Source: an uncultured Candidatus Saccharibacteria bacterium (GTDB taxonomy: Bacteria > Patescibacteriota > Saccharimonadia > Saccharimonadales > UBA4665). From it: a DNA stretch of 64,000 nucleotides. Of this stretch, positions 10,125-27,119 are shown one piece after another. Position numbers and translations under genes: made by a program. The DNA lies in the NCBI GenBank assembly GCA_963742655.1, contig CAVUMM010000008.1:311707-375706 (forward strand), read 5' to 3'. The notes beneath the pieces are model-generated. The model made no database searches. It was not told the DNA's origin and saw nothing but the letters and a program-made list of their open reading frames with translations. Position 1 is the stretch's first letter; each line of letters opens with the position of its first letter.

Positions 10125-10133
10125 CCGTTAAAG

Positions 10134-10844: not shown

Positions 10845-10874
10845 GAAAGCGTTACCTTTTTAATTGTTAGGTTT

Positions 10875-10903
10875 ATGATGACTGGGCGAAGGTAAAAAGT
10901 CAA
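10875..10903 (-). promoter_or_regulatory. candidate sigma70-type promoter of pilin paralogue 3
   Basis: Minus strand reads TTGACT (10903-10898), 17-nt spacer, CATCAT (10880-10875); followed by the conserved AAAAAGGTAA ribosome-binding region. Confidence 0.4.
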
Positions 10904-10923
10904 TCACTCTTTAATTAAGTTTA

Positions 10924-11478: not shown

Positions 11479-11479
11479 C

Positions 11480-11860: not shown

Positions 11861-12378
11861 TTTAGTTCCACCGTGTTCGTGTATGTTTGCGCACTATTCA
11901 CGCCATGGCCGGGCGTCAAACCGGTAACAGTAAAGCTATAGGTGATCGTGGGTTTGCCGCTCACGTTGCCGAGTTTTTGGAAGTTGAGGGCCGAAACTTT
12001 GACGGTGTTGTCGTTGAGATTGTCGGTGCCGGTACCGTCGGTAAATTGCAGGTTGTTGCCGCTGAGGGCGTAAGTATACGTCGTGCTGCTGATGGTCATC
12101 ACCAGCGTCGCTCCGCTGCCTCCGAGTGACGCGGGGGTCGTGACTGCCGTTGCCCGTGCGATATCGTAATTCAACCGCGCCATAATAAAGCGGCCATTGC
12201 CGGTTACGGCCGAATAATTCCTTGACAAATTCTGCTGGTCAACGGAGGCTGTAAAAATAGTCGTGAGCACCACGAGCATAATCGAAAGCAAACCCATGAC
12301 AACCAGGAGCTCTATCAACGTTGCGCCACGCTGTCCGTACGTACGTAATCTGGAAGGTAAGAGTAATATTTTTATCAT
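11857..12378 (-). CDS. minor (pseudo)pilin
   Basis: ATG at 12378 (ATGA overlap with the upstream stop at 12375). Leader ...TYGQRG then ATLIELLVVMGLLSIML. The track ORF extension to 12549 lies inside the upstream gene. Confidence 0.7.
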   Translation of the reverse strand: MIKILLLPSRLRTYGQRGATLIELLVVMGLLSIMLVVLTTIFTASVDQQNLSRNYSAVTGNGRFIMARLNYDIARATAVTTPASLGGSGATLVMTISSTTYTYALSGNNLQFTDGTGTDNLNDNTVKVSALNFQKLGNVSGKPTITYSFTVTGLTPGHGVNSAQTYTNTVELK

Positions 12379-14279
12379 GGCGAGTAATTTAGCGTTGTGT
12401 CGAGTATGAAGGGTTTTGAGGTGGCAAAGTTTGTCGTATTCAGTGTTGCTTTGTAGCGGAAATAGCGATAGTCTGCGTCTACCAACGGAATGGCGCCGGG
12501 GCTGGAATAGCGGGAAAACGGCGTACCGTCCGGCCCGATGTAATTCCATGTGGCGTTGTCGTTGTTGGCGGCGATTTGATAGGTAATGGTGGTATTCACC
12601 GGCATCGTGTTGGTGAAAGTAAAGTAATTGAAACCGGCCGCCGCACCGGCATTGAACGTCTGCGACGTGAATGTCCCGTTCCCACTCGTTCCGCCGGCAA
12701 CGGCTGATCCCTTCATGATGGTAAGTTCGGCAGTGTTTGACGTTGACGCTATATATGCAGTGTCATTAGCAACAAAAATGTTATCTGCCGTCGACTGAGT
12801 ATTTGAACCTTCCAGGGTCGGTGTAGATATTGTTGAAAGGTCTAGCACTGTAAATTGTCTCGCCGCCCGCGCGGTTGCCAGAAAAGCTTCGTACCCGTTA
12901 ACACTTACGCCATTCACGGCTCCTCCCACTTCGTAGGAGCCGACTTGACTTATGCTTGACAGGTTTGTAACATTTAAAATGAAAAATTCCGGTCCGCCGG
13001 TATTGTTTGCTTCGCCTAAATATACGTAATATCCATCGTAATAAATGTTATTGGCTGCAACGCCACCTGTGGTGGCAAAGGACCCGACAACTGTCGGGGT
13101 ACTTTTGTTGCTTATATCCACAACGGTGAGTTCGGCAGTAGTGTCTCCGGTAGCAAGGTAAGCGTAATTCCCGGAGACTTTGATTGAATTTACGGCACCG
13201 GCCATATTCAGCGATCCGGCAAGCGTTGGCGTTGAAGGATTACTTACATCCACGACATAAAATTCATCATTTCCATTGTTCGTGTTCAGCGCTTTTCCAA
13301 CGTAGGCGTAACCACCTGTTACATATACGCTATTAGCATTCGCAGCCCCGCCCAGGTTGAGTGTGCCAGCCTGCACGGGTGCGGCCGGGTTACTGACATT
13401 TACAACGGTTAATTCAGCAGTGTTGCTCGTGGATGCGATGTATGCAAAATTGCCAACCACGTATACGCTATTCAGTTGAACCGCAGGATTAAAAGTGCCA
13501 AGCAACGCGGGTGCGGCCGGGTTGGCGACATTGATGATGCTCATACTTGCGCCGTTTACGACATAGGCGCGATTTGTCGAAGTGTCGGTATAGACGTCGT
13601 TAGCATTGGTGTTGCCGGCGATATTAAGCGTACCGACCTGTATGGGGCTGACCCAGCTGACCCCATGGCCGGCGGCAGTTATTTGTACTTGCCCTCCACC
13701 CGTGGCCGAAGACGTGGTGTTATTAAGTGTTCCAGCACTGAAGTTAGCCTGCGTCGTTTGCAGCCAAGCGGCGTTGCTTTGCCAGCGCGAAAAGTATGCC
13801 TGGCTGGAAATTGAAGAACCAATCGGTTTTGTCCATGATACAGTCGCAGTAACCAACTTAGTATTAGGATCAATTGTGCCGCCGCTGCTTACGATTGTTC
13901 CGCTGCTGTCGCGTTGCACATCACTGATGACGATTTGCTGTGTAAAATTTCCGGACGTAGCAGAGCCGCTGGCAAGCGTCCAGGCATTAGCGCTTGTAAT
14001 CGGGTGATACGTCCCGTTCGTTGCAATGTTACTCCAGCCACTTTCGCGTACACTGCGAGTTTCTTCGGTAAGACTGCGCAGAAATCCCGAAGCGAGCGCT
14101 TGTTGCTGGGCCGCCGGTTTCGCAGCATTCGCGCTGATCAGGGCAGTCAATATAGCCGGCAGCATGATGCTGGTTATGCCGATAGCGACGAGGACTTCCA
14201 CCAACGAGGCGCCGCGCTGGTTTCGTGAATGCGGTTTTTGCCTGGTTAATTTTGCCTGTATATATCGGATGATTTTCAT
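12375..14279 (-). CDS. pseudopilin-like N-terminus fused to an LVIVD-repeat beta-propeller (candidate pilus-associated adhesin)
   Basis: 634 aa. Leader ...SRNQRG then ASLVEVLVAIGITSIML. About seven ~40-aa repeats of the type VNS[IV]xVxGNYAY[IL]Axxxxxx[EL]TVVD[VI]SNPxxPxxxG, the LVIVD repeat pattern. Distinct C-terminal ~110-aa domain. Confidence 0.8.
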   Translation of the reverse strand: MKIIRYIQAKLTRQKPHSRNQRGASLVEVLVAIGITSIMLPAILTALISANAAKPAAQQQALASGFLRSLTEETRSVRESGWSNIATNGTYHPITSANAWTLASGSATSGNFTQQIVISDVQRDSSGTIVSSGGTIDPNTKLVTATVSWTKPIGSSISSQAYFSRWQSNAAWLQTTQANFSAGTLNNTTSSATGGGQVQITAAGHGVSWVSPIQVGTLNIAGNTNANDVYTDTSTNRAYVVNGASMSIINVANPAAPALLGTFNPAVQLNSVYVVGNFAYIASTSNTAELTVVNVSNPAAPVQAGTLNLGGAANANSVYVTGGYAYVGKALNTNNGNDEFYVVDVSNPSTPTLAGSLNMAGAVNSIKVSGNYAYLATGDTTAELTVVDISNKSTPTVVGSFATTGGVAANNIYYDGYYVYLGEANNTGGPEFFILNVTNLSSISQVGSYEVGGAVNGVSVNGYEAFLATARAARQFTVLDLSTISTPTLEGSNTQSTADNIFVANDTAYIASTSNTAELTIMKGSAVAGGTSGNGTFTSQTFNAGAAAGFNYFTFTNTMPVNTTITYQIAANNDNATWNYIGPDGTPFSRYSSPGAIPLVDADYRYFRYKATLNTTNFATSKPFILDTTLNYSP

Positions 14280-14281
14280 GA

Positions 14282-14773
14282 CTAATTTATCGTGAGCGCT
14301 CCATAGCGCCCGACGCTAATAGTTTTTGATGTGCCGTTATCGGAAATAGTAATCGTATTGCTCCCGCCCGAAAATCCTGAAACCGCACCGTCACCCTTTT
14401 GGAAAAGCAAATTACTGCCCGGGAACGTCGTTGCAATGACAGCCGGGCTTATCGAAACGGTAAAATTATTCGTATCGGAACCGTTATAACTACTGCCGGC
14501 GTACAGGACGTATGAGCCGGATTGAACGTGTACGCCTTGCGGCTGTTGGCTGGTCGTACTGCCAATTCCGCCGGACATGGCGAGTAATTGTTGCCCCTTG
14601 ATGTCGCTCGTCAAAGTATCGGTTAATGATGATACCGACGCTGTTTGATGGACTTTACCTAAATTGATCGTAGCCAGCGCAAACAAAATAGCCGATACTC
14701 CAAGCACGACCATAATCTCAACAAGCGTAAAACCTGCCTGATTCGTTCGACGTTCGGCGAGTATTTGAAACAT
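14282..14773 (-). CDS. minor (pseudo)pilin
   Basis: Leader MFQILAERRTNQAG then FTLVEIMVVLGVSAILFALA. Confidence 0.75.
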   Translation of the reverse strand: MFQILAERRTNQAGFTLVEIMVVLGVSAILFALATINLGKVHQTASVSSLTDTLTSDIKGQQLLAMSGGIGSTTSQQPQGVHVQSGSYVLYAGSSYNGSDTNNFTVSISPAVIATTFPGSNLLFQKGDGAVSGFSGGSNTITISDNGTSKTISVGRYGALTIN

Positions 14774-14778
14774 AACTA

Positions 14779-15867
14779 TTACTGAGGAGGGCCGCCCGTC
14801 TGGGCTGTCGGCGAGTTTATTTGGCTGATCATTCCGTATACCGGCGCGATGACTGAAATCATGAGTGTGCCGACCATGATGCCAACGAACACGATCATGA
14901 CCGGCTCCACTATGCTGCCGATTACTTTCAGTGTAGACGCTACCTGTTCGTCAAAATAGTCGGCCAGGTTCTGCAACGCTTTTTCGAGCGTGCCCGTTTC
15001 CTCGGCAGTTTTGATGGAGCGCTCCATCATCGCCGGCACGACGCCTGCGGTCGAGCCCAGACTGGCGCCAAGCGGTTTACCGTTGGCGACGTCTATCCGC
15101 ATCTGGTGAACGATTGCCGCGATATCCTTTTTTTGGACCACTGGTTCGGAAAATTTTAACGCGTCGAGTATCGGCACCCCGGCACGCATCAGCAGTGCGA
15201 AACTGCGCATAAAACGCGCAAAATCAATGTTACGCCCGAGTCTATGTAGCATCGGCAACGACATGACCAAACGGAATATAACTTGCTTTTGAGTTTTGAA
15301 AAACACCACAAGCAGCACTACCGCCAAAATTAACCCGGCAACGACTTCGTACCAATGCGCCATAAAAAATGTCGACGCGGATAGCATTACCCTGGTTATT
15401 AAAGGCATGTTGATATCGAGTGAACGGAATACTTTCGATATGCGCGGCATCACAAAGGTAAGCACCAAAACGATTATCGCCAAAAATATTATCAAGACGA
15501 AGAACGGATATATCATCGTATTTCGTAGTTGCTCGCTGAAATTCGCATCTTTTTTGCCGGTGTCGACGATGTCCTGAAGTGTATTTTCCAGTGTGCCGCC
15601 GGCTTCTGCTGCCCGGATAAGGTTGATGGTAATCTCGTCGAACGTGCGCGGAAAGCGGCCAAGGATTTTAGCGAGTGACTCGCCGTTATACAGGCCTTTC
15701 CTGATGCTTTCCAGCATCTTTTTTACGTTACCTTTGGCATCTTTTTCTAATGATACGACCGCATCCAGGATCGGAATGCCGGATTTTAGCATCGTGGTCA
15801 TATCCGACAGTAAGCTTAACCTGTCTTTGCTTTTAAGTTTTATTTTCGAATTAGCCCGATTTTTCAT
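14779..15867 (-). CDS. pilC: type IV pilus platform protein PilC (GspF family)
   Basis: 362 aa; duplicated GspF-type cytoplasmic domains (LSLLSDMTTMLKSGIPILDAV and FARFMRSFALLMRAGVPILDAL) with three TM segments. Confidence 0.9.
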   Translation of the reverse strand: MKNRANSKIKLKSKDRLSLLSDMTTMLKSGIPILDAVVSLEKDAKGNVKKMLESIRKGLYNGESLAKILGRFPRTFDEITINLIRAAEAGGTLENTLQDIVDTGKKDANFSEQLRNTMIYPFFVLIIFLAIIVLVLTFVMPRISKVFRSLDINMPLITRVMLSASTFFMAHWYEVVAGLILAVVLLVVFFKTQKQVIFRLVMSLPMLHRLGRNIDFARFMRSFALLMRAGVPILDALKFSEPVVQKKDIAAIVHQMRIDVANGKPLGASLGSTAGVVPAMMERSIKTAEETGTLEKALQNLADYFDEQVASTLKVIGSIVEPVMIVFVGIMVGTLMISVIAPVYGMISQINSPTAQTGGPPQ

Positions 15868-15872
15868 GGCGA

Positions 15873-17564
15873 CTACAATTTCGTCACGCGCATTATTTCG
15901 GACAACGTGGTTTCGCCGGCAATTACTTTGTCGAGCCCATCATCGAGCATCGTTACCATGCCGTCGTGGATAGCCTGTTCAGCTAGTTTGTCGGTATCGA
16001 CTTTTTCACTTATCAGCTGGGCAAGTTTCGGCGTGATTTGCAGGACTTCGAATACGCCTAAACGTCCCTGGTATCCGGTGTTGTGGCAGGCGGTGCAGCC
16101 GTTGCCCTTGTAAACGCGGATGCCCGCCTTGTTGCCGAAGTGCTTCACGTACATGGCTTTGGTGATATTAGATAGCAAAACAGACTGGCTGGCATCACCG
16201 GCCCAGCCTTTTGCCGTGTGGGTCAGTTTGATGCTGACCTTACAGCGCTCGCAGATCTGGCGTACCAGGCGCTGTCCGATAACGATGTTCGTGGTCGACG
16301 CGACAAGAAAAGGCTCGATCCCCATATCAATCAGCCGGGGCAGGGTCGTTACGGCATCGTTGGTGTGCATGGTGCTGAGCACCATATGGCCGGTCATGGC
16401 GGCGTTGACGGCGATTGCCGCCGTTTCGTCATCGCGGATCTCGCCTACGAACAGCACGTCCGGATCCTGGCGCATAAGTGATCGCAGACCCGCTTCGAAC
16501 GTCAGGTTAGCTTTGGCATTTACCTGGATTTGGTTGATGCCTTCAAGTTCGTACTCGATCGGGTCTTCTATCGTTGCTATGTTGCGGTTGCGTGCGTTCA
16601 GGATTTTAAGTATCGCGTAAATTGATGTAGTTTTGCCTGAGCCGGTCGGGCCGGTTGACAGCACCATGCCGTATGGCCGGGTAAAGCCTTTACGAACCAG
16701 CTCCATATTGTCGGCGGTCATGCCAAGTTCGGTCAGATTGAATTGGTGGTTTTGTCGCGCCAGTACGCGCATGACAACTTTTTCGCCGGTCACCTGCGGG
16801 ACGATGCTGATACGCACTGCCAGGTCTTGATCGCGGACCCGCACCCGCATACGTCCGTCCTGCGGCCCCATATGCTCATCGGTACGAAGCCGCGCCATAA
16901 CTTTGAAACGGGCGACCATTTGATCGTGGTACGTTTTCGCAAAATAAGCTTCGTCGTGCAGTACACCATCGATACGGAATCGTATGACAGTGGCACCGCG
17001 CAGCGGCTCGACATGTATATCCGAAGCTTGGGCGTCAAACGCATAATCAAAAATACAATCCACGACTTTAGCGACCGGTGCCGCGCCGGTATTTTCACTT
17101 GGCAGCATCTCGTCTAACACATGCTGCAAGTTGCGCTTGTACAGGTGCAGGGCGGAATCAATGCCCGCGTCACTGGCAAACGAAACTTTGCTGGTTTTGG
17201 CGCCGGCCTTTTTGGCTAGCATATCGAACAGGTCGGTAGCGGCAGGTTGGGCCGTGGCAATATGCAGCGTGTCGACATCCAGCTGAAAAGCGACGGTTTG
17301 GAATCGTTTTGCAACCTCAGCAGGCAGCATTTGTAAAAGTTCGTCCGGAATATTTATCTTATTGAGTTCGACATAGGGCAATTTATAATGGTACGCAGAA
17401 ACTTCGCCAAGTTGTTCTTCGTTTAGTATTTCGTGGTCAAGCAATGCCTGCTGCAGGCTGGTTTTATCCTTCTGGGCGTAGCCTTTTGCAGAATCCAGTT
17501 TTTGTTCCGGCACGAGCTTAACGTGCTTGAGCACGTTCAGCAGCTCGTCGTCAGTCAGATTCAT
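15873..17564 (-). CDS. pilB: type IV pilus assembly ATPase PilB (GspE family)
   Basis: 563 aa; Walker A GPTGSGKTT, MRQDPDVLFVGEIRD, tetracysteine CERC...CTAC, N-terminal GspE-N domain. Confidence 0.95.
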   Translation of the reverse strand: MNLTDDELLNVLKHVKLVPEQKLDSAKGYAQKDKTSLQQALLDHEILNEEQLGEVSAYHYKLPYVELNKINIPDELLQMLPAEVAKRFQTVAFQLDVDTLHIATAQPAATDLFDMLAKKAGAKTSKVSFASDAGIDSALHLYKRNLQHVLDEMLPSENTGAAPVAKVVDCIFDYAFDAQASDIHVEPLRGATVIRFRIDGVLHDEAYFAKTYHDQMVARFKVMARLRTDEHMGPQDGRMRVRVRDQDLAVRISIVPQVTGEKVVMRVLARQNHQFNLTELGMTADNMELVRKGFTRPYGMVLSTGPTGSGKTTSIYAILKILNARNRNIATIEDPIEYELEGINQIQVNAKANLTFEAGLRSLMRQDPDVLFVGEIRDDETAAIAVNAAMTGHMVLSTMHTNDAVTTLPRLIDMGIEPFLVASTTNIVIGQRLVRQICERCKVSIKLTHTAKGWAGDASQSVLLSNITKAMYVKHFGNKAGIRVYKGNGCTACHNTGYQGRLGVFEVLQITPKLAQLISEKVDTDKLAEQAIHDGMVTMLDDGLDKVIAGETTLSEIMRVTKL

Positions 17565-17791: not shown

Positions 17792-18193
17792 ATGGACGAG
17801 ACTAAATATACTACTACAAACCTGAATAAGCGGATATTGCTGGCGGATGCTGACCAGTTCATCGCTGTAGCCTACAAAGACGGCGTTGAGCAGGCTGGTT
17901 ACGAGGCTATTGTCGCCAGCGATGGTCGCAAAGCATTGGACATTCTTAAATCCGAACACATGGATGCCGTAATTCTCGAACTGATCCTGCCGAAAGTGAA
18001 CGGCTTTGAAATCCTGCAGTTCATGCAAAAAAATAAAAAGCTCAAAAAAATTCCGGTAATCGTGCTTACAAGCCTCAGCCAGGCCAGTGACGAAGCCGAA
18101 GCCCGCAGCTACGGCGCGATCGATTTCATGGTCAAGTCAGAAACTTCAGTTGTGGATTTGATCGATCGGCTCAACGGACTTTTTTCAGCGTGA
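17792..18193 (+). CDS. stand-alone CheY-like response regulator
   Basis: 133 aa; RILLADAD, DAVILELILPKVNGFE, VIVLTS, K in DFMVKS; no output domain; transcribed divergently from pilB. Confidence 0.85.
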   Translation: MDETKYTTTNLNKRILLADADQFIAVAYKDGVEQAGYEAIVASDGRKALDILKSEHMDAVILELILPKVNGFEILQFMQKNKKLKKIPVIVLTSLSQASDEAEARSYGAIDFMVKSETSVVDLIDRLNGLFSA

Positions 18194-19456
18194 ACGGTGC
18201 GTCAATTTTCTAGATTTGGCCGAACGCCGTTTCGGCACGAATCGAAGATAGCTTTCGCGCTCGCCAAGCCAGAAACTCAAGACCATTAATACGACGGTGG
18301 CATAGGCCGGCCAGGCGAGCCAGAGCCACGAACCGCGCTGAGCAAAAAAGCTCCAAATGCCGTTCGGCTGGGCTGAACCGTTTGATGAGCCGGTTGATGC
18401 GCCGACAATTCCGTAAATACTGGTTGCGCCCGGTGATTTAATCAGGGCCGCCAGCTGAATAATTCTCACTGAACCCTCGGCGTCGACCGATCTAATAGTA
18501 ATCGGATAGTAACCGTTTCTGTTGTATACGTGCTGGATCCAGAATACCGGATCGACCTTAAAGATCAGCTTGGAATGCTGACCGTCTCCCCAGCTGATGT
18601 AGACCGTGTACGGCGGTACGCCGCCTTCCAGGTCGAGCGACCACTTAAACTGGCTGCCGGTCAAAAACGTCTGATAGTGAAAGTCTGCGGTAAGTAGCAG
18701 CGGCGGCTCGGTAGCACCGGAGCCGGATATAGTATAGCTGGTGCCGTTTGGCGATTGCACGGTGACGGGCGAGCCGGTTGTGCCGGTGACGGTTTTGCCC
18801 GGCTGCGATGGCTGTGTCGGCGGCGGCGAAGGCGGCGTGTACTTTATCGTAATAACCGGCGTGGTGGGGCCTGGGTCGTCGGTTTCGTTATAATCTTGAG
18901 CCCGCAATACGTTGGTACCGTCGTAACAGTTCATCTGGATGCTAAATTGGCCGCTATTGCACCAGGCGACGCCGCTGAATGTATTGTTATCGAATAACTT
19001 CACGTATGAATCAGCTGGACAGGTACCGTGTACGGTTTGGGCTGCCACAGTTACTGTTGCACCGTCGTCCGGTGCGGTTATGACGGCACCATCTACCAGC
19101 GGCGCGGCTGGCACCTTAGCTTTTACGGTGTACGATCCGGCCACTACCTTGAACGTCCAGCCGATAATTAACACGCCTGCACACAATACGAGCAGAACGC
19201 TAGCAGGGTGGAGGAGAATGCGTTTGTGTAATGGCCGAGCGGCACGGATGCGTTTTCTGGCGGTGAGTTTCGGCGTCTTACGACTGGGGGCCAGACGCTG
19301 CCCGCGAACTGCGGTCCGGTTTGTTTGCCGCCGGCGTGTCGTTTTGGACTGCTTCATGAAGCGATTTTTCTTTTTATCGTCAAGCCGCATCATAACACGG
19401 TTGTAACTGCGTTGTAAATTGATCACGCTCACCGCGTTCTGCAATATGTGTGGCAT
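18185..19456 (-). CDS. membrane protein with PKD-like domain and Arg/Lys-rich cytoplasmic N-terminus
   Basis: TM helices near both ends, Pro-rich linker PPSPPPTQPSQP, PKD-like WGDGQH...YNRNGYYPITIRSVDAEGS. True start uncertain (in-frame ATGs at 19393 and 19357). Confidence 0.6.
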   Translation of the reverse strand: MPHILQNAVSVINLQRSYNRVMMRLDDKKKNRFMKQSKTTRRRQTNRTAVRGQRLAPSRKTPKLTARKRIRAARPLHKRILLHPASVLLVLCAGVLIIGWTFKVVAGSYTVKAKVPAAPLVDGAVITAPDDGATVTVAAQTVHGTCPADSYVKLFDNNTFSGVAWCNSGQFSIQMNCYDGTNVLRAQDYNETDDPGPTTPVITIKYTPPSPPPTQPSQPGKTVTGTTGSPVTVQSPNGTSYTISGSGATEPPLLLTADFHYQTFLTGSQFKWSLDLEGGVPPYTVYISWGDGQHSKLIFKVDPVFWIQHVYNRNGYYPITIRSVDAEGSVRIIQLAALIKSPGATSIYGIVGASTGSSNGSAQPNGIWSFFAQRGSWLWLAWPAYATVVLMVLSFWLGERESYLRFVPKRRSAKSRKLTHRSR

Positions 19457-19466
19457 AATTTAAATC

Positions 19467-20039
19467 ATGACGCGTAATCGGAGGATGGTGCTGGGGAGCG
19501 TAGTCTTAGCGCTCATCGCTATCGTTGGCGGCGTAATGTTTGTTATGTCGCGATTGAACGCGCCACACCAAGGCGTGGTCCATGTTGGCGCCGTCATTCA
19601 ACCGAGCGCAACTTTTGATATGACGCCGAAGCCGGCGCAAGGCACGTATGTGACGTTTGCATATCCGGCGGGCTTGACGGTCGTTCCGAACAATCCGATC
19701 GTCAAACCGGTACTCGAACAGTTTAATTTCATACATCGCGATATTGAAACGTGGAATTTGGCGATCGCAGTACTTACTAACCCAGGTGACATCAGCACCA
19801 ACAATGCCTACCAATACCGCAAAACAAAACCATCTGAGTATAAAGAATCACAACTGACCGTCAACGGCCGGCAAGTGGTTATTATGACCGACACAAGCGT
19901 GGGTGGCTTTAGCGAAGTTGCTTTTTTGCAACACGGGCCCTACGGCGCGACGATTTCGCTTTATGGCGACGATCAGGCGGGTACGCAAGCGTTAGCGAAT
20001 ACTTTCCATATGATACTGAGCACTTGGAGCTGGAAATAG
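19467..20039 (+). CDS. hypothetical membrane-anchored protein
   Basis: 190-aa ORF with a single N-terminal TM helix; no family recognised. Confidence 0.5.
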   Translation: MTRNRRMVLGSVVLALIAIVGGVMFVMSRLNAPHQGVVHVGAVIQPSATFDMTPKPAQGTYVTFAYPAGLTVVPNNPIVKPVLEQFNFIHRDIETWNLAIAVLTNPGDISTNNAYQYRKTKPSEYKESQLTVNGRQVVIMTDTSVGGFSEVAFLQHGPYGATISLYGDDQAGTQALANTFHMILSTWSWK

Positions 20040-20083: not shown

Positions 20084-21109
20084 ATGGTTAAAGTCGGGCC
20101 GATTGTAGTGAGTCTGGGGACGCTTCTGTTCGCTTCGTTTTCTTCCAGCAGCACGTATCAATTAAATAGTTATAGTGTTGGGCCGGGCGGGACGAATAGT
20201 GCCGGATCGAGCACCTATAAATTGCAGGGGAGTACTGGCGAACAAGCTAACGGTTCAGCTGCCGGTTCGACTGATACGGCCGGCAATGGATCAGTTCAAA
20301 CAGAGCAGCTCAATGTGCCGCCAGCACCAACCCTCAGTAATGGCTCTGGTGCTTACTACAATAAATTGCAGTTGACCATCAATGTTGGCAACGATACTGC
20401 CAGCGATATCACCTTTGCGATTGCGGTGTCGACCGACAACTTTGTGACCACGAATTATGTTCAAGCGGACGGGACGCTCAATATTTCTCCAGTGTACCAG
20501 ACGTATGCGAGCTGGGGTGGCAGCAGCGGTTCCTTTATCACGGGACTCGCAGCAAGTACGACGTATAAAGCCAAAGTTGCGGCCAAGCAAGGCTTGTTTA
20601 CGAATACGGAATTTGGTGCCGTCGCGACTCAGAGCACCGCAGCCCCATCGATAACTTTTTCTGTATCGCCAAATTCGTTGACATTGAGTACCTTGTTGCC
20701 TGGAAGTGTTATTACGAGCTCAAACCTGGCGTTATCGCTCGATACGAACGGCGCGTCGGGAGGTGGTGTGTATGTTTCGGGCCTCAATACAGGATTAACT
20801 AGTCAGCGTGTTAGTTATACAATCCCCGCATTTTCTGGAAATCTTGCTTTACAGCCCCAAGGGTTCGGCGTGCAAGCTACCAGCCCCAGTCAATCCTCAG
20901 GCGGCCCTTTGAGTAGAGTGAGTCCGTTTGACGGTTCAGCTAACACCGTCGGCGCCGAATCAACAACGCCACAATCAATGCTTTCGTCACCCGCTGCAAT
21001 TGCGGGCGGCAGTGCCAATGCCAACGCCCAGGCCAAGGCTTCTTCAAACACGCCGGCCAGTCCTGATTACTCAGAGACATTGACATTCACTGCCGCAGCA
21101 AATTTCTGA
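20084..21109 (+). CDS. secreted surface protein P1: FN3-like domain plus WxL-like C-terminal domain
   Basis: Signal peptide; FN3-like segment PPAPT...GLAASTTYKAKVAAKQG. C-terminal ~170 aa similar to the next gene, ending DYSETLTFTAAANF. Confidence 0.7.
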   Translation: MVKVGPIVVSLGTLLFASFSSSSTYQLNSYSVGPGGTNSAGSSTYKLQGSTGEQANGSAAGSTDTAGNGSVQTEQLNVPPAPTLSNGSGAYYNKLQLTINVGNDTASDITFAIAVSTDNFVTTNYVQADGTLNISPVYQTYASWGGSSGSFITGLAASTTYKAKVAAKQGLFTNTEFGAVATQSTAAPSITFSVSPNSLTLSTLLPGSVITSSNLALSLDTNGASGGGVYVSGLNTGLTSQRVSYTIPAFSGNLALQPQGFGVQATSPSQSSGGPLSRVSPFDGSANTVGAESTTPQSMLSSPAAIAGGSANANAQAKASSNTPASPDYSETLTFTAAANF

Positions 21110-21232
21110 AAAATGTAAGATTTTTAACACACAAATCATTGCTTTGCTTATGTTTTTATAATAAGCTTATGTTATCCGAAAAGTAACAGCAGAAAATAAC
21201 AGTCATTAACTTTAAGCAGGAAAGTTCTGCAT

Positions 21233-22282
21233 ATGAAGCGTATAAAAGTAACAATTTCTAGAAAACTACAACTCGCACTCGTCTTGTTAGGCGTGGTGAC
21301 GGTCAATGTGGCATTTTTGCCGGTAGCATCGGCTGCAACATTTATGACGCATGCCACGGTCATGGAAACAAATATGAATACTTCCGGACAATCCGCACTG
21401 ATTGTAGCCTTTACGGCTGGTGCGGCTGACAGCGGCAACTTGGTTATCAACATGGGCACCGCGACTTCAGCCGTGTTGGCGGCGCCTGCAATATCGACGA
21501 CTTACAATGGGGTTGATTGTAAAACAATTACCGGCGCGGCTAATGACCTGCCAGGCACACTGTCTTCCTCGGGTAACTCAAATCCTACCATTACTGTTAC
21601 CGGCGTTACAGCATTAACAGCAGGACAATCGTACTGTGTTGTTGTGGGCTCTTTTGCGGCACAAACTGCAGTTACAAACGTGGCATCTTCGAATTCGTAC
21701 GCTGTCACCCTGACAGATGGAACAGACTCAGCTACGGTTGCGATTGACTTGATTGCAAACGATCAAGTTGTCGTGAACGCGACAGTGGCCCCGGCGTTTA
21801 CGTTGGCGCTCAGCGGAAACACTGATAACTTTACTGGCAACTTGTCATCAGGTTCTATTGCCACGACTACCGGTGTAACAGCGACGGTCAACACAAACGC
21901 TAAGACGGGCTGGTTCTTGTGGGGTTCAGATTCTAATACAGGCATTAAGTCGGCAACTCAGAACTACACAGTGCCTTCGCGAACACCAGGCACCAATGCT
22001 ACATTGACTAATGGAACAGAAGGATACCTTACGGGTCTGCCAGCTGGTGGCATTACGCAGGGGAGTGGCGCCGGTACGACGACTGCCACGACCGCCTATG
22101 CTTCATCCGGCTCTGGTAATGGAAGTGGATTGGATGGCACTCCCCGTCAGCTAGCCAGTAGCGATGGTACTGCCAATGGCGCGATTGTCACCGTAAAGGA
22201 ATTCGGCACGATTGCCGGCACTACCCCGGCTGCATCTGATTACAGTGATACAGTTACACTTGTCGGCGCGGGCAGTTTCTAG
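21233..22282 (+). CDS. secreted surface protein P2 with WxL-like C-terminal domain
   Basis: Signal peptide ending VASAATF; AGGAAAG RBS. C-terminal domain contains TGWFLWGS and ends DYSDTVTLVGAGSF. Confidence 0.7.
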   Translation: MKRIKVTISRKLQLALVLLGVVTVNVAFLPVASAATFMTHATVMETNMNTSGQSALIVAFTAGAADSGNLVINMGTATSAVLAAPAISTTYNGVDCKTITGAANDLPGTLSSSGNSNPTITVTGVTALTAGQSYCVVVGSFAAQTAVTNVASSNSYAVTLTDGTDSATVAIDLIANDQVVVNATVAPAFTLALSGNTDNFTGNLSSGSIATTTGVTATVNTNAKTGWFLWGSDSNTGIKSATQNYTVPSRTPGTNATLTNGTEGYLTGLPAGGITQGSGAGTTTATTAYASSGSGNGSGLDGTPRQLASSDGTANGAIVTVKEFGTIAGTTPAASDYSDTVTLVGAGSF

Positions 22283-22295
22283 GATAATTACATAC

Positions 22296-23351
22296 ATGTT
22301 GCGGTTCGTGAAACCGGCTTTGGTAGCTGGTGGGGTTGGATTAATATTGGCGGCGGCCGTTGTCGGCGCGATTCGCCCGGCTAGTGCGGCATCAAGCACC
22401 GGCTCTGTGTTGACGACTTCGCCCGTCGCCATAGATCTTGCGGCATCGCCCGGATCGAAAGCCACCACCACACTGCAGGTCCAGAACAACGGCACCAAAT
22501 CAGTCACGATAGATGTTGAATTAGAGAAGTTCAAGGCCAACGGCGAGAGCGGGCAGGCACAGATTTACAAGCCGTCTTCTGATGACCCGTCAGTGTCGTG
22601 GGTGCATTTTTCCCGGACTTCTTTTACGGCAGATCCAGGCGTTTGGAATTCCGTAACTATGACAGTCGAGCTGCCTATCAGTGCAGCCTACGGCTATTAC
22701 TATGCGGTTTTGTTTGAGCCGCAAATTACAACCGTTGGCAGTACCCACAATAAAGTAAAAGGCGCCAACGCCATCTTTGTACTGTTAAATGCGCAAGTCG
22801 CCAATGAAAATAATGTATTGCAGGTTAAGAGCTTTAGTTCGGACAAATCGTTATACCAGTACCTTCCTGCGAGTTTTAGCATGACGACGCATAATAGCGG
22901 CAATATTTATACCGCACCAAAGGGCGAAGTATTTATCAGCCGAACCAAAAACGGCCCAGCCATTGCAACGCTCGATATCAATCCCGGGCAGGGCAATGTA
23001 CTGCCAGGCACCAGTCGTATTTTCCAGGTAACCTGGAAGGATGGCTTTCCCGTGTATCAGGTCAAACGCGTTGACGGGCAAATTGTGTCTGATAAAAATG
23101 GCAAACCCGAGCAGACCTTGCACTGGAATGGCAACGTATCCAAGTTCCGATTTGGAAAATACTATGCTCGCTTGGTACTAGTGTACAGCCAAGACGGAAA
23201 AGATGTCCCTGTTACTGCACAAGTATCATTTTGGGTAGTGCCATGGACCGTAGTTGTCATTCTGATCGTGATCTTGATACTCATTGTATTTGGCATTTGG
23301 GCGGTGCTAAAGGACACCAATAAAGCTGTCCGATGGTTCCGCAAATCGTAA
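22296..23351 (+). CDS. membrane-anchored Ig-like surface protein P3 (DUF916/DUF3324-like topology)
   Basis: ATG 22296. Signal peptide, two beta-rich halves (DLAASPGSKATTTLQVQNNG..., SWVHFSRTSFTADPG...YGYYYAVLF, VLPGTSRIFQV), C-terminal TM helix and KAVRWFRKS tail. Confidence 0.7.
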   Translation: MLRFVKPALVAGGVGLILAAAVVGAIRPASAASSTGSVLTTSPVAIDLAASPGSKATTTLQVQNNGTKSVTIDVELEKFKANGESGQAQIYKPSSDDPSVSWVHFSRTSFTADPGVWNSVTMTVELPISAAYGYYYAVLFEPQITTVGSTHNKVKGANAIFVLLNAQVANENNVLQVKSFSSDKSLYQYLPASFSMTTHNSGNIYTAPKGEVFISRTKNGPAIATLDINPGQGNVLPGTSRIFQVTWKDGFPVYQVKRVDGQIVSDKNGKPEQTLHWNGNVSKFRFGKYYARLVLVYSQDGKDVPVTAQVSFWVVPWTVVVILIVILILIVFGIWAVLKDTNKAVRWFRKS

Positions 23352-24349
23352 GGCGTGTCTGTTTACTGACAGCTGCGTTATGTTGTCTGCTGCCAGCTGT
23401 CATTGCCGGCGCCAAGAGCCAGGCACCGAGCACGCAGCCGCAGCCCCAGGGGATTACTGTTTCACCTGCGATAGAGCAATTAACGTTGCACCAAAACCAA
23501 TCGGTAGCTACGTTCCCGACAACGGTGACAAATCATACGGGTTCCACGGTGCTCATCACGGTCAAAGCAAGGGACTTCACAGCATCAAGCGATGGCAAAA
23601 GATTGACGTTTATTGGCAATACAGAATCTTCATCCAAGCCACATGGTTTAAGTAATTCTCTAAAAATGAGCCCGAGCCAAGCCACGCTTGCACCGGGCGC
23701 AAACCAAAAAGTACTCGTTGCGGTGAGTAACGCCACCAATTTGGCGCCAGGCGGGCACTATGCGGCATTAATATATATGGCCCGCGGCGTCAATCAAAAG
23801 CAGAAAAACACGGTAGCGATTCGCGAGGCAGTGTCGTGTCTGGTTTTTGTAAATACTTACGGTGGGGGCACGCAAACGACTACCCTTTCTGTCCCTTCCA
23901 TGAGCGGGCTGGTGACGAGCTTGCCGAAAAATATAAATGTTGTGCTGACGAATTCGGGTAACACGCCAACGGTGCCGCGCGGGTACGTGCAAATAATTAA
24001 TTCGAAGTCGATGCTGTTAGCGCAAAACCAATTAAATGTTGATTCGAGCATGATTCTGCCGGGTAGTACTCGACTGTTTCCGATTTCTCTAGTAACGGTC
24101 GGTGATCATGCATGGTATGGTGTGTACCATCTAAAAATCTTTTACCGACACGACGGGCAGAAAAATTTTAATGTGTACGACAAAAAGCTGCTGCTCGTAA
24201 GCGCTCAACTCATTATTTCCGCTTGCATATTAGTGGTTGTCTTAATTGCAGTCGCAGTATGGTTGTTTAAGCTCCGCGCTAAGCCAAAATTAAAACCCGA
24301 ATCAAAACCGACAGTCCCCAAAAAATCAGTTCGTATCGAGGTGAAATAG
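23333..24349 (+). CDS. membrane-anchored Ig-like surface protein P4, paralogue of P3
   Basis: Same layout as P3: signal peptide, ITVSPAIEQLTLHQNQSVATFPTTVTNHTG..., ILPGSTRLFPI, C-terminal TM and Lys-rich tail. Overlaps the P3 end by 19 nt. Confidence 0.7.
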   Translation: MVPQIVRRVCLLTAALCCLLPAVIAGAKSQAPSTQPQPQGITVSPAIEQLTLHQNQSVATFPTTVTNHTGSTVLITVKARDFTASSDGKRLTFIGNTESSSKPHGLSNSLKMSPSQATLAPGANQKVLVAVSNATNLAPGGHYAALIYMARGVNQKQKNTVAIREAVSCLVFVNTYGGGTQTTTLSVPSMSGLVTSLPKNINVVLTNSGNTPTVPRGYVQIINSKSMLLAQNQLNVDSSMILPGSTRLFPISLVTVGDHAWYGVYHLKIFYRHDGQKNFNVYDKKLLLVSAQLIISACILVVVLIAVAVWLFKLRAKPKLKPESKPTVPKKSVRIEVK

Positions 24350-24393: not shown

Positions 24394-25086
24394 ATGTTGG
24401 CAAAGAAGTCTCGGACAGGGCGGTTGGTGACTGAATATTTTCACGCCCACGGCGAGCAGCGATTATTGCGCAAAAGCGAGCAGATACCTAGCAATGATCT
24501 TATTAATTGCATATTTTTGGTGGAGAGCGGCTTTGTGACGGCGGGTCTTGGGGGTGAACGTTCGCCCACGCGAGCACAGTATATCTATGGCCCGGGCGAC
24601 TTGTTGCAGCTGCAACATCTGGTTGCCAAGAGTCGTCTTGATATCGAATACTACGCCCTGTCTCCGGCTGCAGTGTATAAACTCCCCGCCGAACTGTTGG
24701 TCGAAGCGATTGGTCGCCAAAAAGATTTGGCCAACGATTTGCTGCGTTTGACCATTTTACAAAGCGAACTGCAAGCCAAACGGATCGAGAATTTAAGCTA
24801 CCGATTTGCGAGCGATAAGTTGATATACCGCATCCTGCATTTAGCGGAACGTTTTGGGGTGATGAGAGAGGAATCGGTGTATATACAAATACCGATTACG
24901 CATCGGGAGCTCGGCATGTTTATAAATATGGCACGCGAAAGCGTATCGAGAGAGATGCAAAAGCTGATCGACAAAGACCTCATTAAATACGAACGGCAAC
25001 GTATTACTATCCTCGAGCCCGAGCAGCTGATTGCTGCCCTGCACGAGACGATACGGACAGACTGGCGAAGCATATTGTCTGCCTGA
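24394..25086 (+). CDS. Crp/Fnr family transcriptional regulator
   Basis: 230 aa; N-terminal cNMP-binding-like beta-roll, C-terminal HTH THRELGMFINMARESVSREMQKL. Confidence 0.85.
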   Translation: MLAKKSRTGRLVTEYFHAHGEQRLLRKSEQIPSNDLINCIFLVESGFVTAGLGGERSPTRAQYIYGPGDLLQLQHLVAKSRLDIEYYALSPAAVYKLPAELLVEAIGRQKDLANDLLRLTILQSELQAKRIENLSYRFASDKLIYRILHLAERFGVMREESVYIQIPITHRELGMFINMARESVSREMQKLIDKDLIKYERQRITILEPEQLIAALHETIRTDWRSILSA

Positions 25087-25205: not shown

Positions 25206-27119
25206 ATGAGAGTTATGGAAAATAGGCATCGCCTCTTGGGGTTGTTAACTTTGAGTTGCTTGTTCATGCCCTTCTTAATGCCCGCGTCCGCTCAGGCTGC
25301 CGCGGGCATTAATCCCGAAATAAACTTCCAGGGCAAGGTTGTGCAATCGGACGGCACCAACATTACGGACGGGTCGCATAATATGGAATTCAAAATCTAC
25401 TCGGGTGATAGTTGCGACCCGACTACCGGGTCAAGCTGTACGCTCGATTGGACGGGCGACTGGCTGGTGTCGGCGTCGCATCCGGTTGACTTTGTGAGCG
25501 GCACGTTTCAGGCTGATCTTGGTTCGGTCACATCTTTTGGCGGAAGTGTTGACTGGAATAGTTATCCCCTTTATTTATCGTTGCAGGTCGGGGATTTGTC
25601 TTCATGTACGATCAGCACTTCGTTTCAGGCGGATTGCGGCGGGGATGGCGAGATGAAGCCGTATATATTGTTGACGGCGACACCCTACGCGCTGAATGCC
25701 GGCGAACTTGACGGGCTGTCATCATCGGCTTACGGACAGCTGGCGCTTGATCAAACGCGCACTGGAACGTATGCCATCCAAAATACATCAAGTGCTGCGT
25801 TCGCTGTGCAGAGTGCCGGCGGCGCTAACACCACGCTTGCCGTTGATACCGGCAACGGATACGTAGGCATCGGCACGCCAACGCCTGGCGCTAATCTTGA
25901 TATTAAAAATGCCGGTTCTGGCACGGCGGTGAATGTAGAGGCCGATACACCTCCAACTGCGAATATGGTGAGCATTTCGAACGCCGGGCAGGCCGTCGCC
26001 ACCGATAATGTGAATGACTTGGCGGTCAATTTTGCCGGGGGCAACTCAAATGGGGAATCGGCCGGAGTAAGGATTGATTATGCGCCGGGCAGCACGAGCG
26101 GCGGCACTTGGGACGGTCTTCACGTTGTGGCAAATGCGACCGGCCCAGGCAGCGGTGTCACTAGCTACGGTGTAAAGGTTGATGGCCCAACAAGTCCGGG
26201 CGGCGGCACACAGGAAGGAGTAAAAATTACTACCGGTTTCGACATCGGCCTTGATATTGACTCCGGTGGCATCCAGTTGGCCGATATGTCTTCATCTCCC
26301 GCCGCTCCAGCGGCCAACGAATTGAAAGTTTACGCCAGAAGTATTTCCGGCAGGTCAATGTTGTCCGAGCAAGGGCCGAGCGGCGTGGCTTATGCGCTTC
26401 AGCCAAGCTTGTTCCAGCAAAATGTCGTGCTTGTAACCGGCGGCGCCAATACCAACAACGGCCAATATACGACTATCGGATCGAATGTTAACGCTTCCGG
26501 TACGCTGACATCCCAAAACGGCAGTAGTTCGGAGGCGCTCGGCAATACCAGCCGAATCGCGACCGGCACGACAGCCAATACGGTCGCCGGCTTTTATACT
26601 AAAAACGTGTATTACCTGGGGTCGACTGCCAACGGCGCTGATGGATTTTTCTACTTTGCCAGAATGAATTTGAACGGCCAGGCGATCGGTAATTACAAAA
26701 GCGGCACCACCGGTTCGCGCATTTTTATGGGTATGTGCGGCGCGACGTATACGAATTGCGGTTCTTCGGACTCGCCGACAACATCAAACGCGGCCGGCTT
26801 TCAATTTTCCGGTGCTCGCGGCGATAACGACTTTCAATTCCTGACCTGCAACGCTTCGGCCTGTAGTGTGGTCGATACGGGAGTCGCGATTAACAACTCG
26901 AGCACGTTTGATTTTTATGCGTACACGCCGCCGCAAGGCACGACGATTTACTGGCGTATAGACGATGTGACGAACGGAACGGCGCCTGTCGAGGGAAATA
27001 CGGCGACGGATTTGCCCGCCGGCAGCGGGGCAATGAATGCGGGTATGACTATCACGAATCTTTCGGCTGCGAACCGTTTCCTGTATTTCCAGCGCATGTA
27101 TCTTGAGACTGATCGGTAA
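25206..27119 (+). CDS. large secreted fibre-like surface protein F1
   Basis: 637 aa; signal peptide ending ASAQAAAG. N-terminal ~150-aa module shared with the 27970 gene (INxxxxFxGK, DGTxNMEFKIY, CGGDGEM, LTATPYAxNA, LDGxxSS); Gly/Thr/Ala-rich middle; distinct C-terminal domain. Confidence 0.75.
   Translation: MRVMENRHRLLGLLTLSCLFMPFLMPASAQAAAGINPEINFQGKVVQSDGTNITDGSHNMEFKIYSGDSCDPTTGSSCTLDWTGDWLVSASHPVDFVSGTFQADLGSVTSFGGSVDWNSYPLYLSLQVGDLSSCTISTSFQADCGGDGEMKPYILLTATPYALNAGELDGLSSSAYGQLALDQTRTGTYAIQNTSSAAFAVQSAGGANTTLAVDTGNGYVGIGTPTPGANLDIKNAGSGTAVNVEADTPPTANMVSISNAGQAVATDNVNDLAVNFAGGNSNGESAGVRIDYAPGSTSGGTWDGLHVVANATGPGSGVTSYGVKVDGPTSPGGGTQEGVKITTGFDIGLDIDSGGIQLADMSSSPAAPAANELKVYARSISGRSMLSEQGPSGVAYALQPSLFQQNVVLVTGGANTNNGQYTTIGSNVNASGTLTSQNGSSSEALGNTSRIATGTTANTVAGFYTKNVYYLGSTANGADGFFYFARMNLNGQAIGNYKSGTTGSRIFMGMCGATYTNCGSSDSPTTSNAAGFQFSGARGDNDFQFLTCNASACSVVDTGVAINNSSTFDFYAYTPPQGTTIYWRIDDVTNGTAPVEGNTATDLPAGSGAMNAGMTITNLSAANRFLYFQRMYLETDR

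Follow-up and report, generated by a model that had tools for sequence, protein, structure and literature searches.

The four genes at positions 20084–24349 of the window (the whole 64,000-nucleotide stretch analysed here) are, with a probability that we put at about three in four, the core genes of a Pam-type pilus operon in a CPR bacterium of the Saccharimonadia. In this core, P1–P4 most likely represent two pilins and two membrane-anchored assembly chaperones; in the same reading the neighbouring PamR gene acts together with the block, and ORF190 probably joins it functionally. A Pam-type pilus has already been described in CPR, and the new part is that the chaperones P3 and P4 are distantly related to the WxL-interacting protein (WxLIP) of Firmicutes, belonging to the same remote superfamily. 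The block is not a WxL/Csc system, the identity proposed in a preliminary description of this DNA. The features of the locus are given in Table 1.

Table 1. Features of the putative pilus locus and its flanks (positions in the window).
Feature	Position	Strand	Basis or remark
PamR homologue	18185..19456	-	NCBIfam NF058578 CPR_pilus_PamR
ORF190, small conserved protein	19467..20039	+	directly upstream of P1; N-terminal signal-anchor
P1, candidate tip or minor pilin	20084..21109	+	PamT-like N-terminus; CTD homologous to P2 CTD
P2, candidate major (shaft) pilin	21233..22282	+	PamB-like architecture, AF2 model
P2 inter-domain linker, proposed donor strand	21758..21796	+	residues 176–188, NDQVVVNATVAPA
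P3, membrane-anchored two-Ig-domain chaperone-like protein	22296..23351	+	PamC/PamD type; remote WxLIP homologue
P3 residues 143–166, proposed F1-G1-loop/G1-type donor element	22722..22793	+	AF2 and conservation
P4, second membrane-anchored chaperone-like paralogue	23333..24349	+	nearest to WxLIP
Crp/Fnr-family transcription regulator	24394..25086	+	PF13545 HTH_Crp_2, E 1.6e-14
Fibre-like secreted protein	25206..27119	+	frequent downstream neighbour

All four ORFs were found on the forward strand with operon-like spacing: 123 nt lie between P1 and P2, 13 nt between P2 and P3, and P3 and P4 overlap by 19 nt. The ATG of P3 at 22296 is backed by full-length homologues and by the 351-aa gene call of the database. 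A hydrophobic signal-like segment is present at the N-terminus of each protein, in line with the earlier prediction of export, while a strong C-terminal transmembrane (TM) segment followed by a Lys/Arg tail was found only in P3 (residues 304–342) and P4 (283–318). Thus ORFs, segments and alignments agree with the four co-directional genes, the topology and the paralogy first described. A P3 relative is encoded in 300 GTDB species genomes. Among the 79 species-level CPR loci fetched, 63 contained all four families and 59 kept the exact order P1, P2, P3, P4, as the preliminary description had expected; the loci departing from it were mostly truncated at contig ends. Given these 300 genomes and 59 ordered loci, the block is real, far beyond chance. 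P1 (counted in 51 complete loci) and P4 are single-copy throughout, and P2 occurs in 1–3 copies per locus. In homologue searches the family was found in CPR only, and a P3 homologue without pilins also occurs (locus L011). No additional pilin-like or chaperone-like ORFs were found in the window.

The NCBIfam models for PamR and PamT both match the locus, with scores under their equivalog cutoffs. The PamR homologue adjoins the block and is transcribed divergently from it; the match has an E-value of 2.4e-51 and 174 bits against an equivalog cutoff of 300, and covers model positions 37–288 of 297. The protein carries a hydrophobic C-terminal segment (377–398) and a basic tail, and PamR lies within 10 kb in 20 of the 79 related loci. 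PamR is RbmA-like and has been proposed to be the pilus terminator and membrane anchor. The PamT model (NF058579) matches P1 at residues 8–74 with an E-value of 1.1e-7, spanning only the N-terminal ~67 residues, signal peptide included; 40 of 59 P1-family members match it, and they match no other NCBIfam family. P2, P3 and P4 gave no match to the Pam models in NCBIfam, and their likeness to Pam proteins was judged by the published descriptions.

The Pam donor-strand pilus (structures 25PZ and 25QA) was described in Candidatus Mycosynbacter amalyticus. Cryo-EM showed that its pilins form filaments, conservation in PamA/PamB is reported to be highest in the donated linker and at the CTD site, and the chaperone role of PamC/D is a prediction (Troman et al., bioRxiv 10.64898/2026.03.03.709456). 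The locus studied here comes from the same lineage and has the adjoining PamR homologue and the PamT-like N-terminal segment of P1. Like the described proteins, P2 is a two-domain pilin-type protein with a conserved linker and CTD and with an NTD sandwich as in PamB, and P3 and P4, as PamC and PamD, are paralogues with two Ig-like domains and a C-terminal TM helix; there is no usher, and a fibre-like protein is encoded nearby. The differences concern the gene order (ORF190-P1-P2-P3-P4 with two pilin genes, against PamC..B..R-D-E-A-T in M. amalyticus, as inferred from the preprint accessions), the length of P1 (341 aa, including an additional fn3-like domain, where the PamT model has 241 positions) and the single conserved Cys pair of P2 against three in PamB. 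The earlier statement that no such system was known in CPR is outdated, since the locus matches the Pam operon and NCBIfam holds models for PamR and PamT.

Ser, Thr, Gly and Ala are indeed abundant in P1 and P2 (S/A/T/G of 16/12/12/11% in P1; T/A/G/S of 17/14/12/10% in P2). The shared C-terminal domain reaching the last residue was also confirmed: residues 180–341 of P1 align with 179–349 of P2 (25% identity, E 3e-4), and hhalign gives Prob 99.5% and E 3e-23 at the family level. In both proteins the last element is a conserved beta-strand closing with Phe, and neither a TM segment nor a basic tail is present there. P1 consists of a signal peptide, a PamT-like part (~23–78), an fn3-like middle (~79–174; weak fn3 or Pur_ac_phosph_N matches in 11 family members) and a C-terminal pilin domain (~192–341); its linker residues are polar or small, and their conservation reaches only the 53rd percentile. 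The AF2 model of P2 (pLDDT 91.7), whose 304 homologues are all from CPR, comprises an NTD beta-sandwich of ~10 strands (39–172), a coil (173–188) and a CTD (189–349) extending to the last residue. The C-terminal strand is the highest conservation peak, with F349 invariant. The linker, unstructured in the monomer model, is the third-highest (92nd percentile) and has the family pattern D-Q-[IV]-x-V-x-A-x-V-P-P, in which positions i, i+2, i+4 and i+6 are hydrophobic; it is proposed as a candidate donor strand.

P3 and P4 are 27% identical over 256 aa (E 1e-8), and their families align with an hhalign Prob of 99.9% (E 7e-34). In the AF2 model of P3 (pLDDT 85.7), domain 1 (38–166) and domain 2 (175–314) are followed by a TM helix (317–349). 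Since this C-terminal helix is followed by a positive tail, the two Ig-like domains would sit outside the membrane. The best PDB matches of P3 in Foldseek were the pilus chaperones CsuC (9.7e-11) and CfaA (2e-9), together with EcpB and YadV (up to 5e-7), and the model also matched the WxLIP crystal structures 9i25_C (6.3e-9) and 9i1y, at E-values of 6–9e-9. The fold of P3 and P4 is that of pilus chaperones and WxLIP. Residues 147–154 of P3 have a pLDDT below 50 and are followed by the last strand of domain 1 (158–165, NAIFVLLN), which has alternating hydrophobic residues and in which N158, A159 and L163 are invariant or nearly so. The paralogous P4 segment, REAVSCLVFV, is aligned by hhalign with NEYSYVVALL of WxLIP, where DUF916 ends. 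We infer that P3 residues 143–166 include a putative donor element of the F1-G1-loop/G1 type.

The homology to WxLIP, which consists of DUF916 (PF06030), DUF3324 (PF11797) and a TM helix, was evaluated against a reference alignment of 54 sequences. The P4 family aligned with it over 232 columns (hhalign Prob 98.0%, E 1.7e-13) covering both ectodomains, with the TM helix outside. The ectodomain alone gave 94% (E 1.2e-7), as did domain 1 against DUF916 (E 1.4e-7), while cross-domain controls were at most 1.2% and reversed ones at most 4%. For P3, the Prob was 40–63%. Individually, 47 of 67 P4 orthologues match PF06030 WxLIP_PGBD (best E 1.7e-6), and the P3 and P4 of the window itself stay under the Pfam thresholds. 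P4 is the paralogue nearest to WxLIP, and the suggested resemblance to DUF916/DUF3324 extends beyond topology.

This part of the Csc-like identity stood, but its other part, that P1 and P2 are WxL-domain proteins, did not. None of 70 P2-family and 59 P1-family members matched Pfam WxL (PF13731) at E<=1, hhalign against real WxL domains gave Prob 0.1–0.2%, the level of reversed controls, and no WxL chain was among the top 50 structural matches of P2. All strings quoted in the preliminary description are present, TGWFLWGS at residues 225–232 of P2 (nt 21905–21928) and SWVHFSRTSFTADPG, YGYYYAVLF and VLPGTSRIFQV in P3. The GWxL string of P2, considered as a WxL motif, agrees in four residues by coincidence, and its conservation is limited to P2.

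Among the flanking genes, ORF190 has a hydrophobic segment at residues 5–32; tblastn located it upstream of P1 in 33 of the 79 loci, and an HMM detected 57 such ORFs. It had no match in Pfam or NCBIfam and matched the P2 NTD weakly (hhalign Prob 30%); it is possibly an accessory component. The Crp/Fnr-family gene directly 3' of P4 possibly encodes a regulator of the block. Of the 79 loci, 16 carry a fibre gene 3' of the block, and the fibre-like protein of the window weakly matches the Bdellovibrio MAT fibre N-domain. A tail-fibre-like protein has been named as a central node of pam neighbourhoods (bioRxiv 10.64898/2026.03.03.709456).

It should be noted that the locus resembles chaperone-usher pili, both archaic (Csu) and alternative (CFA/I, Ecp), in the structural matches of P3, in the proposed assembly by donor-strand complementation and exchange and in the conserved extreme C-terminus of the subunit. 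In contrast to those systems, there is neither an usher nor an outer membrane, the chaperones are membrane-anchored instead of soluble, and the two-domain subunits would have their donor strand inside the chain, not at the N-terminus. Moreover, similarity to PapD-type chaperones or Fim-type pilins was absent at the sequence level: hhalign gave at most 1.3% against the chaperones and at most 11%, on 5 columns, against the pilins, and there were no matches to PF00345 or PF02753.

A non-filamentous complex like that of the WxL/Csc clusters of Lactobacillales and Bacillales (PDB 9i1y, 9i25), whose hosts are Firmicutes and not CPR bacteria, in which P3 and P4 would permanently hold monomeric P1 and P2 by strand insertion, is unlikely, even though it is the strongest competitor. 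The topology of P3/P4 is identical to that of their remote WxLIP homologues, the secreted partners likewise precede the anchored protein, and the role proposed for WxLIP is to bind its partner and keep it stable instead of passing it on. On the other hand, P1 and P2 have no detectable WxL domain, no small LPXTG protein was found in the window (its absence had already been noted), and through the PamR homologue and the PamT-like segment the locus is linked to a system whose filaments were seen by cryo-EM. A monomeric adhesin would have no use for a conserved linker with alternating hydrophobic residues such as that of P2; two-domain partners with a putative donor-strand linker imply that P1/P2 polymerise, a behaviour not proposed for WxL proteins.

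Still less probable is a set of unrelated Ig-fold adhesins, with P1/P2 of the MSCRAMM-like 'dock, lock and latch' or S-layer type and generic P3/P4 co-located by operon history and without an assembly role. The top PDB matches of P2 are generic two-Ig adhesins (ClfA, SdrG, CNA-type) and integrin legs, with no pilins (E 2e-6 to 1e-4), and weak fn3_5 and CARDB matches occur in the P3/P4 family; but the TM-scores of these P2 matches are only 0.17–0.25, and the strict synteny, the chaperone and WxLIP matches and the presence of PamR and PamT would be left unexplained. Covalent polymerisation of P1/P2 by a sortase, as in Gram-positive-type pili, would suit the monoderm-type envelope and Ig-fold subunits of this composition, yet it is essentially refuted by the absence of an LPXTG-like sorting signal from P1/P2 and from the rest of the window, by the C-terminus of P1/P2 and by the lack of a Pfam Sortase match among 18 window proteins scanned.

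Based on the Pam-type reading, we suggest the following assembly pathway. After Sec export, P3 and P4 would bind P2 and P1 by their C-terminal pilin domains, which we assume to be Ig folds short of one strand; the end of the first chaperone domain would supply that strand (donor-strand complementation). The same kind of mechanism is predicted by AF2 in the WxL literature, where a WxLIP strand inserts into WxL and completes the beta-sandwich, and this favours the Pam-type reading. P2 would then polymerise into a thin linear fibre by donor-strand exchange, the linker (~178–186) replacing the chaperone strand in the CTD of the neighbour. P1, with its PamT-like N-terminus, fn3-like domain and poorly conserved polar linker, may be the strand-accepting tip subunit, and termination of the fibre and its attachment to the membrane would fall to PamR. 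An usher would be unnecessary because there is no outer membrane. The kinship of the chaperones with WxLIP represents a cross-phylum link absent from the Pam preprint (bioRxiv 10.64898/2026.03.03.709456). Contact with a host or prey would be the task of this fibre, by analogy with M. amalyticus.

The four genes P1–P4 lie on the forward strand and are separated by 123 nt (P1/P2), 13 nt (P2/P3) and a 19-nt overlap (P3/P4); given these short spacings, they look like one operon. The promoter and terminator scan was uninformative: it returned one weak sigma-70-like site just 5′ of P1 (20046–20074) and terminator counts no higher than in shuffled sequence. All four products carry an export signal in the form of a hydrophobic, signal-like N-terminal segment, and Ser, Thr, Gly and Ala are abundant in P1 and P2. 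Among the four, only P3 (304–342) and P4 (283–318) possess a strong C-terminal TM segment with a Lys/Arg tail, by which they are anchored in the membrane with the positive side inside. A C-terminal domain (CTD) extending to the very end of the protein is common to P1 and P2 (25% identity over 175 aa, E 3e-4; between the two families, hhalign gave Prob 99.5%, E 3e-23). P3 is a paralogue of P4 (27% identity over 256 aa, E 1e-8; Prob 99.9% between the families), and the window holds no additional members of either family. The four co-directional ORFs, their topology, both paralogous pairs and the sequence strings quoted in the preliminary description were all recovered from the sequence.

The locus most probably belongs, as a divergent representative, to the Pam pilus system, which has itself already been reported in a preprint and is partly represented in NCBIfam. 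In Ca. Mycosynbacter amalyticus, the pilins PamA and PamB were solved by cryo-EM and assemble by donor-strand exchange, while the PapD/FimC-like chaperones PamC and PamD with C-terminal TM helices, the tip subunit PamT and the RbmA-like anchor PamR were predicted from AlphaFold and Foldseek (bioRxiv 10.64898/2026.03.03.709456). The NCBIfam models for PamR and PamT stem from the same preprint, in whose AF3 models PamT is paired with PamD and PamB with PamC.

In Pfam, nothing significant was found for P1–P4, with no WxL, DUF916 or DUF3324 match at E ≤ 1. The divergent gene adjoining the block upstream matched the PamR model NF058578 over nearly its full length (E 2.4e-51, 174 bits); since the equivalog cutoff is 300, we regard it as a PamR homologue and not as a certified equivalog. 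Its product has a TM segment at 377–398. Residues 8–74 of P1, its N-terminal part only, matched the PamT model NF058579 at 31.5 bits (cutoff 240), and PamT was the sole NCBIfam family matched by P1 orthologues (40 of 59). Compared with PamT, P1 has one extra domain. Members of the P2, P3 and P4 families matched no Pam model in NCBIfam. The PamR homologue, the two-domain P2 and the two anchored chaperone-like proteins correspond to Pam component by component, the Pam proteins being compared through their description and the NCBIfam models. The gene order here differs from that of M. amalyticus, and there are fewer pilin genes.

The AF2 model of P2 (pLDDT 91.7) comprises an N-terminal sandwich (39–172), an unstructured linker (173–188) and the CTD (189–349). 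The three highest conservation peaks of the P2 family fall in the C-terminal strand, the CTD core and the linker (178–189, 92nd percentile). The linker follows the pattern D-Q-[IV]-x-V-x-A-x-V-P-P, with hydrophobic residues at alternate positions, and the terminal Phe of the extreme C-terminal strand is invariant. Conservation in PamA and PamB is distributed likewise (bioRxiv 10.64898/2026.03.03.709456), and P2 also has the domain layout described for PamB. The linker of P1 is made up of polar or small residues and is of average conservation (53rd percentile), which fits a putative tip subunit that would accept but not donate a strand. The 50 best PDB matches of P2 (Foldseek) were generic two-Ig adhesins, with no WxL chain among them, and hhalign gave no signal between P1 or P2 and E. 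coli Fim-type pilins.

The AF2 model of P3 (pLDDT 85.7) consists of two beta-sandwich domains and a TM helix, and has a chaperone/WxLIP fold. Its best PDB matches were the chaperone CsuC (9.7e-11), CfaA, EcpB and YadV, and also RbmA. Thus, the fold of P3 matches that of chaperones from chaperone–usher pili. However, the chaperone is soluble and periplasmic in those systems, whereas P3 and P4 are membrane-anchored. No usher-like gene was found in the block or among the neighbours scanned, and neither P3, P4 nor their orthologues matched the PapD families PF00345 and PF02753. In hhalign, P3, P4 and WxLIP (the WxL-interacting protein of WxL/Csc clusters, with DUF916, DUF3324 and a TM helix) stayed at control level (≤1.5%) against a profile of seven E. 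coli PapD-type chaperones, all classical, without archaic or alternative ones. Two chaperone-like proteins with a C-terminal TM helix are what PamC and PamD are predicted to provide in the Pam system.

A WxL/Csc-like surface complex, as proposed in the preliminary description, has to be judged separately for the two pairs of proteins. The WxL domain assigned to P1 and P2 found no support. PF13731 (WxL) was matched at E ≤ 1 by 0 of 59 P1 and 0 of 70 P2 family members (0/129 in all), and our own WxL HMM gave control-level scores. Against nine real WxL domains, hhalign returned a Prob of 0.1–0.2%, equal to that of reversed controls, whether full-length proteins or CTDs were compared and in both local and global modes. 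The identification of P1 and P2 as WxL proteins was therefore rejected, and at the level of sequence, homology between their CTD and WxL is not detectable. The setting differs as well: the real clusters that were fetched carry a small Gram_pos_anchor protein, whereas the window contains no LPXTG-like ORF, and WxL/Csc clusters have Firmicute hosts, whereas the P1–P4 homologues are all from CPR bacteria. On the other side, P3 and P4 do have the domain order and topology of WxLIP at the level of remote homology. The P3 model matched the Enterococcus faecium WxLIP crystal structures 9i25_C ("bound to long WxL") and 9i1y with E 6–9e-9 (Foldseek). These PDB entries, released in January 2026, show WxLIP with a long WxL protein bound (9i25) and alone (9i1y); no accompanying paper was found in the literature searched.

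For sequence comparison, tryptic peptides of EfmWxLIP3 listed in the PMC10599100 supplement were used as seeds to collect 92 DUF916+DUF3324 proteins, and three WxL clusters (Enterococcus, Carnobacterium and Peribacillus) were fetched in full. The P4 family aligned to WxLIP with hhalign at 98.0% (E 1.7e-13) over 232 columns that span both ectodomains and not the TM helix. The P4 and WxLIP ectodomains alone gave a Prob of 94% (E 1.2e-7), P4 domain 1 and DUF916 94% (E 1.4e-7), P4 domain 2 and DUF3324 37.5% (E 3.5e-4), and merged P3+P4 98.2% (E 5.4e-14). The P3 family alone reached 40–63% (E 2.9e-4 to 7e-5). Among the controls, cross-domain pairs did not exceed 1.2% and reversed sequences 4%, and PamR, which also has two Ig-like domains and a TM segment, scored 1.1%. 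PF06030 (DUF916) was matched by 47 of 67 P4 and 9 of 68 P3 orthologues (best E 1.7e-6), but the window's own P3 and P4 matched neither PF06030 nor PF11797 (DUF3324) at E ≤ 1. Our Enterococcus-biased WxLIP HMM, run against 2,553 ORFs of CPR loci, retrieved just two to three P4 orthologues and one noise-level P1 match at E < 0.01, which indicates that the relation is remote. The signal lies mainly in profile–profile comparison and in Pfam's broader model. The earlier claim of DUF916/DUF3324-like proteins thus stands as remote homology and not as a Pfam-level assignment for P3 and P4 themselves.

At the level of the chaperones, the homology that links CPR Pam-type operons to Firmicute WxL clusters is well supported and, within the limits of the literature searched, appears to be unreported. 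The Pam preprint contains no mention of WxL, DUF916 or archaic chaperones (bioRxiv 10.64898/2026.03.03.709456), the WxLIP paper never mentions chaperones, and no paper linking WxL to chaperones or donor strands was found in the literature searched.

Database searches returned 237 homologues of P3 and 304 of P2, all from Saccharimonadales or Patescibacteria sources and almost devoid of Pfam annotation. When one genome was scanned for each GTDB species, P3 relatives appeared in 300 genomes; M. amalyticus is not among the best 80 of these. In all, 79 loci were fetched and searched with the window's proteins by tblastn. All four families were present in 63 of the 79 loci and the exact order P1, P2, P3, P4 in 59, the exceptions being mostly loci cut by contig ends. 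In the 51 complete loci, P1 and P4 always occur once, P2 one to three times and P3 once or twice. Copy-number coupling of P2 and P3 as a sign of cognate pilin–chaperone pairs was rejected (Spearman rho −0.08, p 0.57). A tandem P2-P3-P2-P3-P2 arrangement in one locus (L006, CAWCCP010000005.1, 8881–14428) suggests that pilin and chaperone were duplicated as a unit in that genome, although the copy numbers are uncorrelated across complete loci. The P3 family is not always bound to the four-gene block: in L011/L001 (OY970151.1, 10001–11098), a lone P3 homologue (53% identity) follows genes for a response regulator and a Cache-domain sensor protein, with no pilin or P4 gene within 10 kb. The CPR-type block was also seen on contigs titled Terrimonas, Limnocylindria or Bdellovibrionales at NCBI (L046, L049, L052, L053, L055, L063, L065, L071, L073, L074, L077 and L079), which are probably mis-binned or mislabelled CPR contigs. 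Other contigs are labelled Moraniibacteriota, and the block may extend beyond Saccharimonadia.

Features of the P1–P4 locus and its neighbourhood
Feature	Position	Strand	Remarks
Type IV pilus cluster, complete	8551–17564	-	directly upstream; PilB, PilC/T2SSF, six ORFs with prepilin N-methylation motifs
634-aa protein	12375–14279	-	LVIVD beta-propeller repeats, prepilin N-methylation motif
PilC/T2SSF	14779–15867	-	
PilB	15873–17564	-	
Stand-alone response regulator	17792–18193	+	convergent, 9-nt overlap with 3′ end of PamR gene
PamR homologue	18185–19456	-	
ORF190, 190 aa	19467–20039	+	N-terminal signal-anchor; immediately 5′ of P1
P1	20084–21109	+	candidate tip pilin
P2	21233–22282	+	candidate shaft pilin
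P3	22296–23351	+	chaperone-like
P4	23333–24349	+	chaperone-like
Crp/Fnr-family regulator	24394–25086	+	44 nt after P4
Fibre-like secreted protein, 637 aa	25206–27119	+	weak match to Bdellovibrio mosaic adhesive trimer fibre N-domain
Fibre-like secreted protein, 960 aa	27970–30852	+	long internal Gly/Thr/Ser/Ala-rich repeats

In the adjacent type IV pilus cluster, the LVIVD-repeat protein is a possible tip adhesin. PilB together with a response regulator was also found upstream of P1–P4 in L054, L055, L071, L077 and L079, and PilB alone in the contig-cut L057; with PilB upstream in several loci, the Pam-type and type IV pilus loci seem to be repeatedly linked. ORF190, which occurs upstream of P1 in 33 of the 79 loci by tblastn (57 ORFs by HMM), had no family match and showed a weak profile likeness to the N-terminal domain of P2 (Prob 30%), and could be a hitherto undescribed accessory pilus protein. 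The two fibre-like proteins are clearly homologous over their N-terminal ~150 aa. In 16 of the 79 loci the block is followed by a fibre gene, in agreement with the "tail fibre-like" node of the neighbourhood network in the Pam preprint (bioRxiv 10.64898/2026.03.03.709456). The response regulator and the Crp/Fnr-family protein are candidate regulators of the pilus genes.

Based on the conserved alternating-hydrophobic linker of the two-domain P2, the anchored chaperone-like P3 and P4 and the adjoining PamR homologue, we suggest the following pathway of assembly. P3 and P4 would complete the CTDs of P1 and P2, taken as strand-deficient. The putative donor element is made up of a low-confidence loop and the conserved strand that closes domain 1 (P3 residues 143–166). 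The P4 counterpart of this segment aligns in hhalign to the end of DUF916, which may contain the WxLIP hairpin that AF2 in the WxLIP paper predicted to insert into WxL; this correspondence is presumptive. P2 would polymerise as the linker of each following subunit takes the place of the chaperone strand, P1 would cap the fibre tip, and PamR would terminate and anchor the fibre. By analogy with the published Pam models, the partners might be P1 and P4 on the one hand and P2 and P3 on the other.

CPR bacteria are obligate episymbionts, and their attachment to hosts is poorly understood. The Pam core emerges here as a tightly conserved four-gene module that encodes a tip-like pilin, a shaft pilin and two chaperones with membrane anchors. 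It is present in hundreds of Saccharimonadia-type species, frequently near type IV pilus genes and fibre proteins. It was less expected that the chaperones show detectable homology to WxLIP of enterococci, lactobacilli and listeriae, to which they are nearer in sequence than to the Gram-negative PapD-type. Pam pili and Firmicute WxL/Csc clusters could both descend from a single ancient monoderm system, with strand-deficient secreted subunits completed in each by an anchored two-Ig chaperone (PamC/D-like and equivalent to WxLIP); we put the chance of this at roughly one in three. If it is true, donor-strand complementation and exchange may be the way in which WxL proteins are handled and perhaps polymerised, and the Pam "chaperones" may double as stable anchors. 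The poorly understood WxL clusters gain a testable model in chaperone-type strand complementation, and the results suggest that bacteria lacking an outer membrane have long and widely assembled surface fibres by means of membrane-anchored chaperone systems that need no usher.
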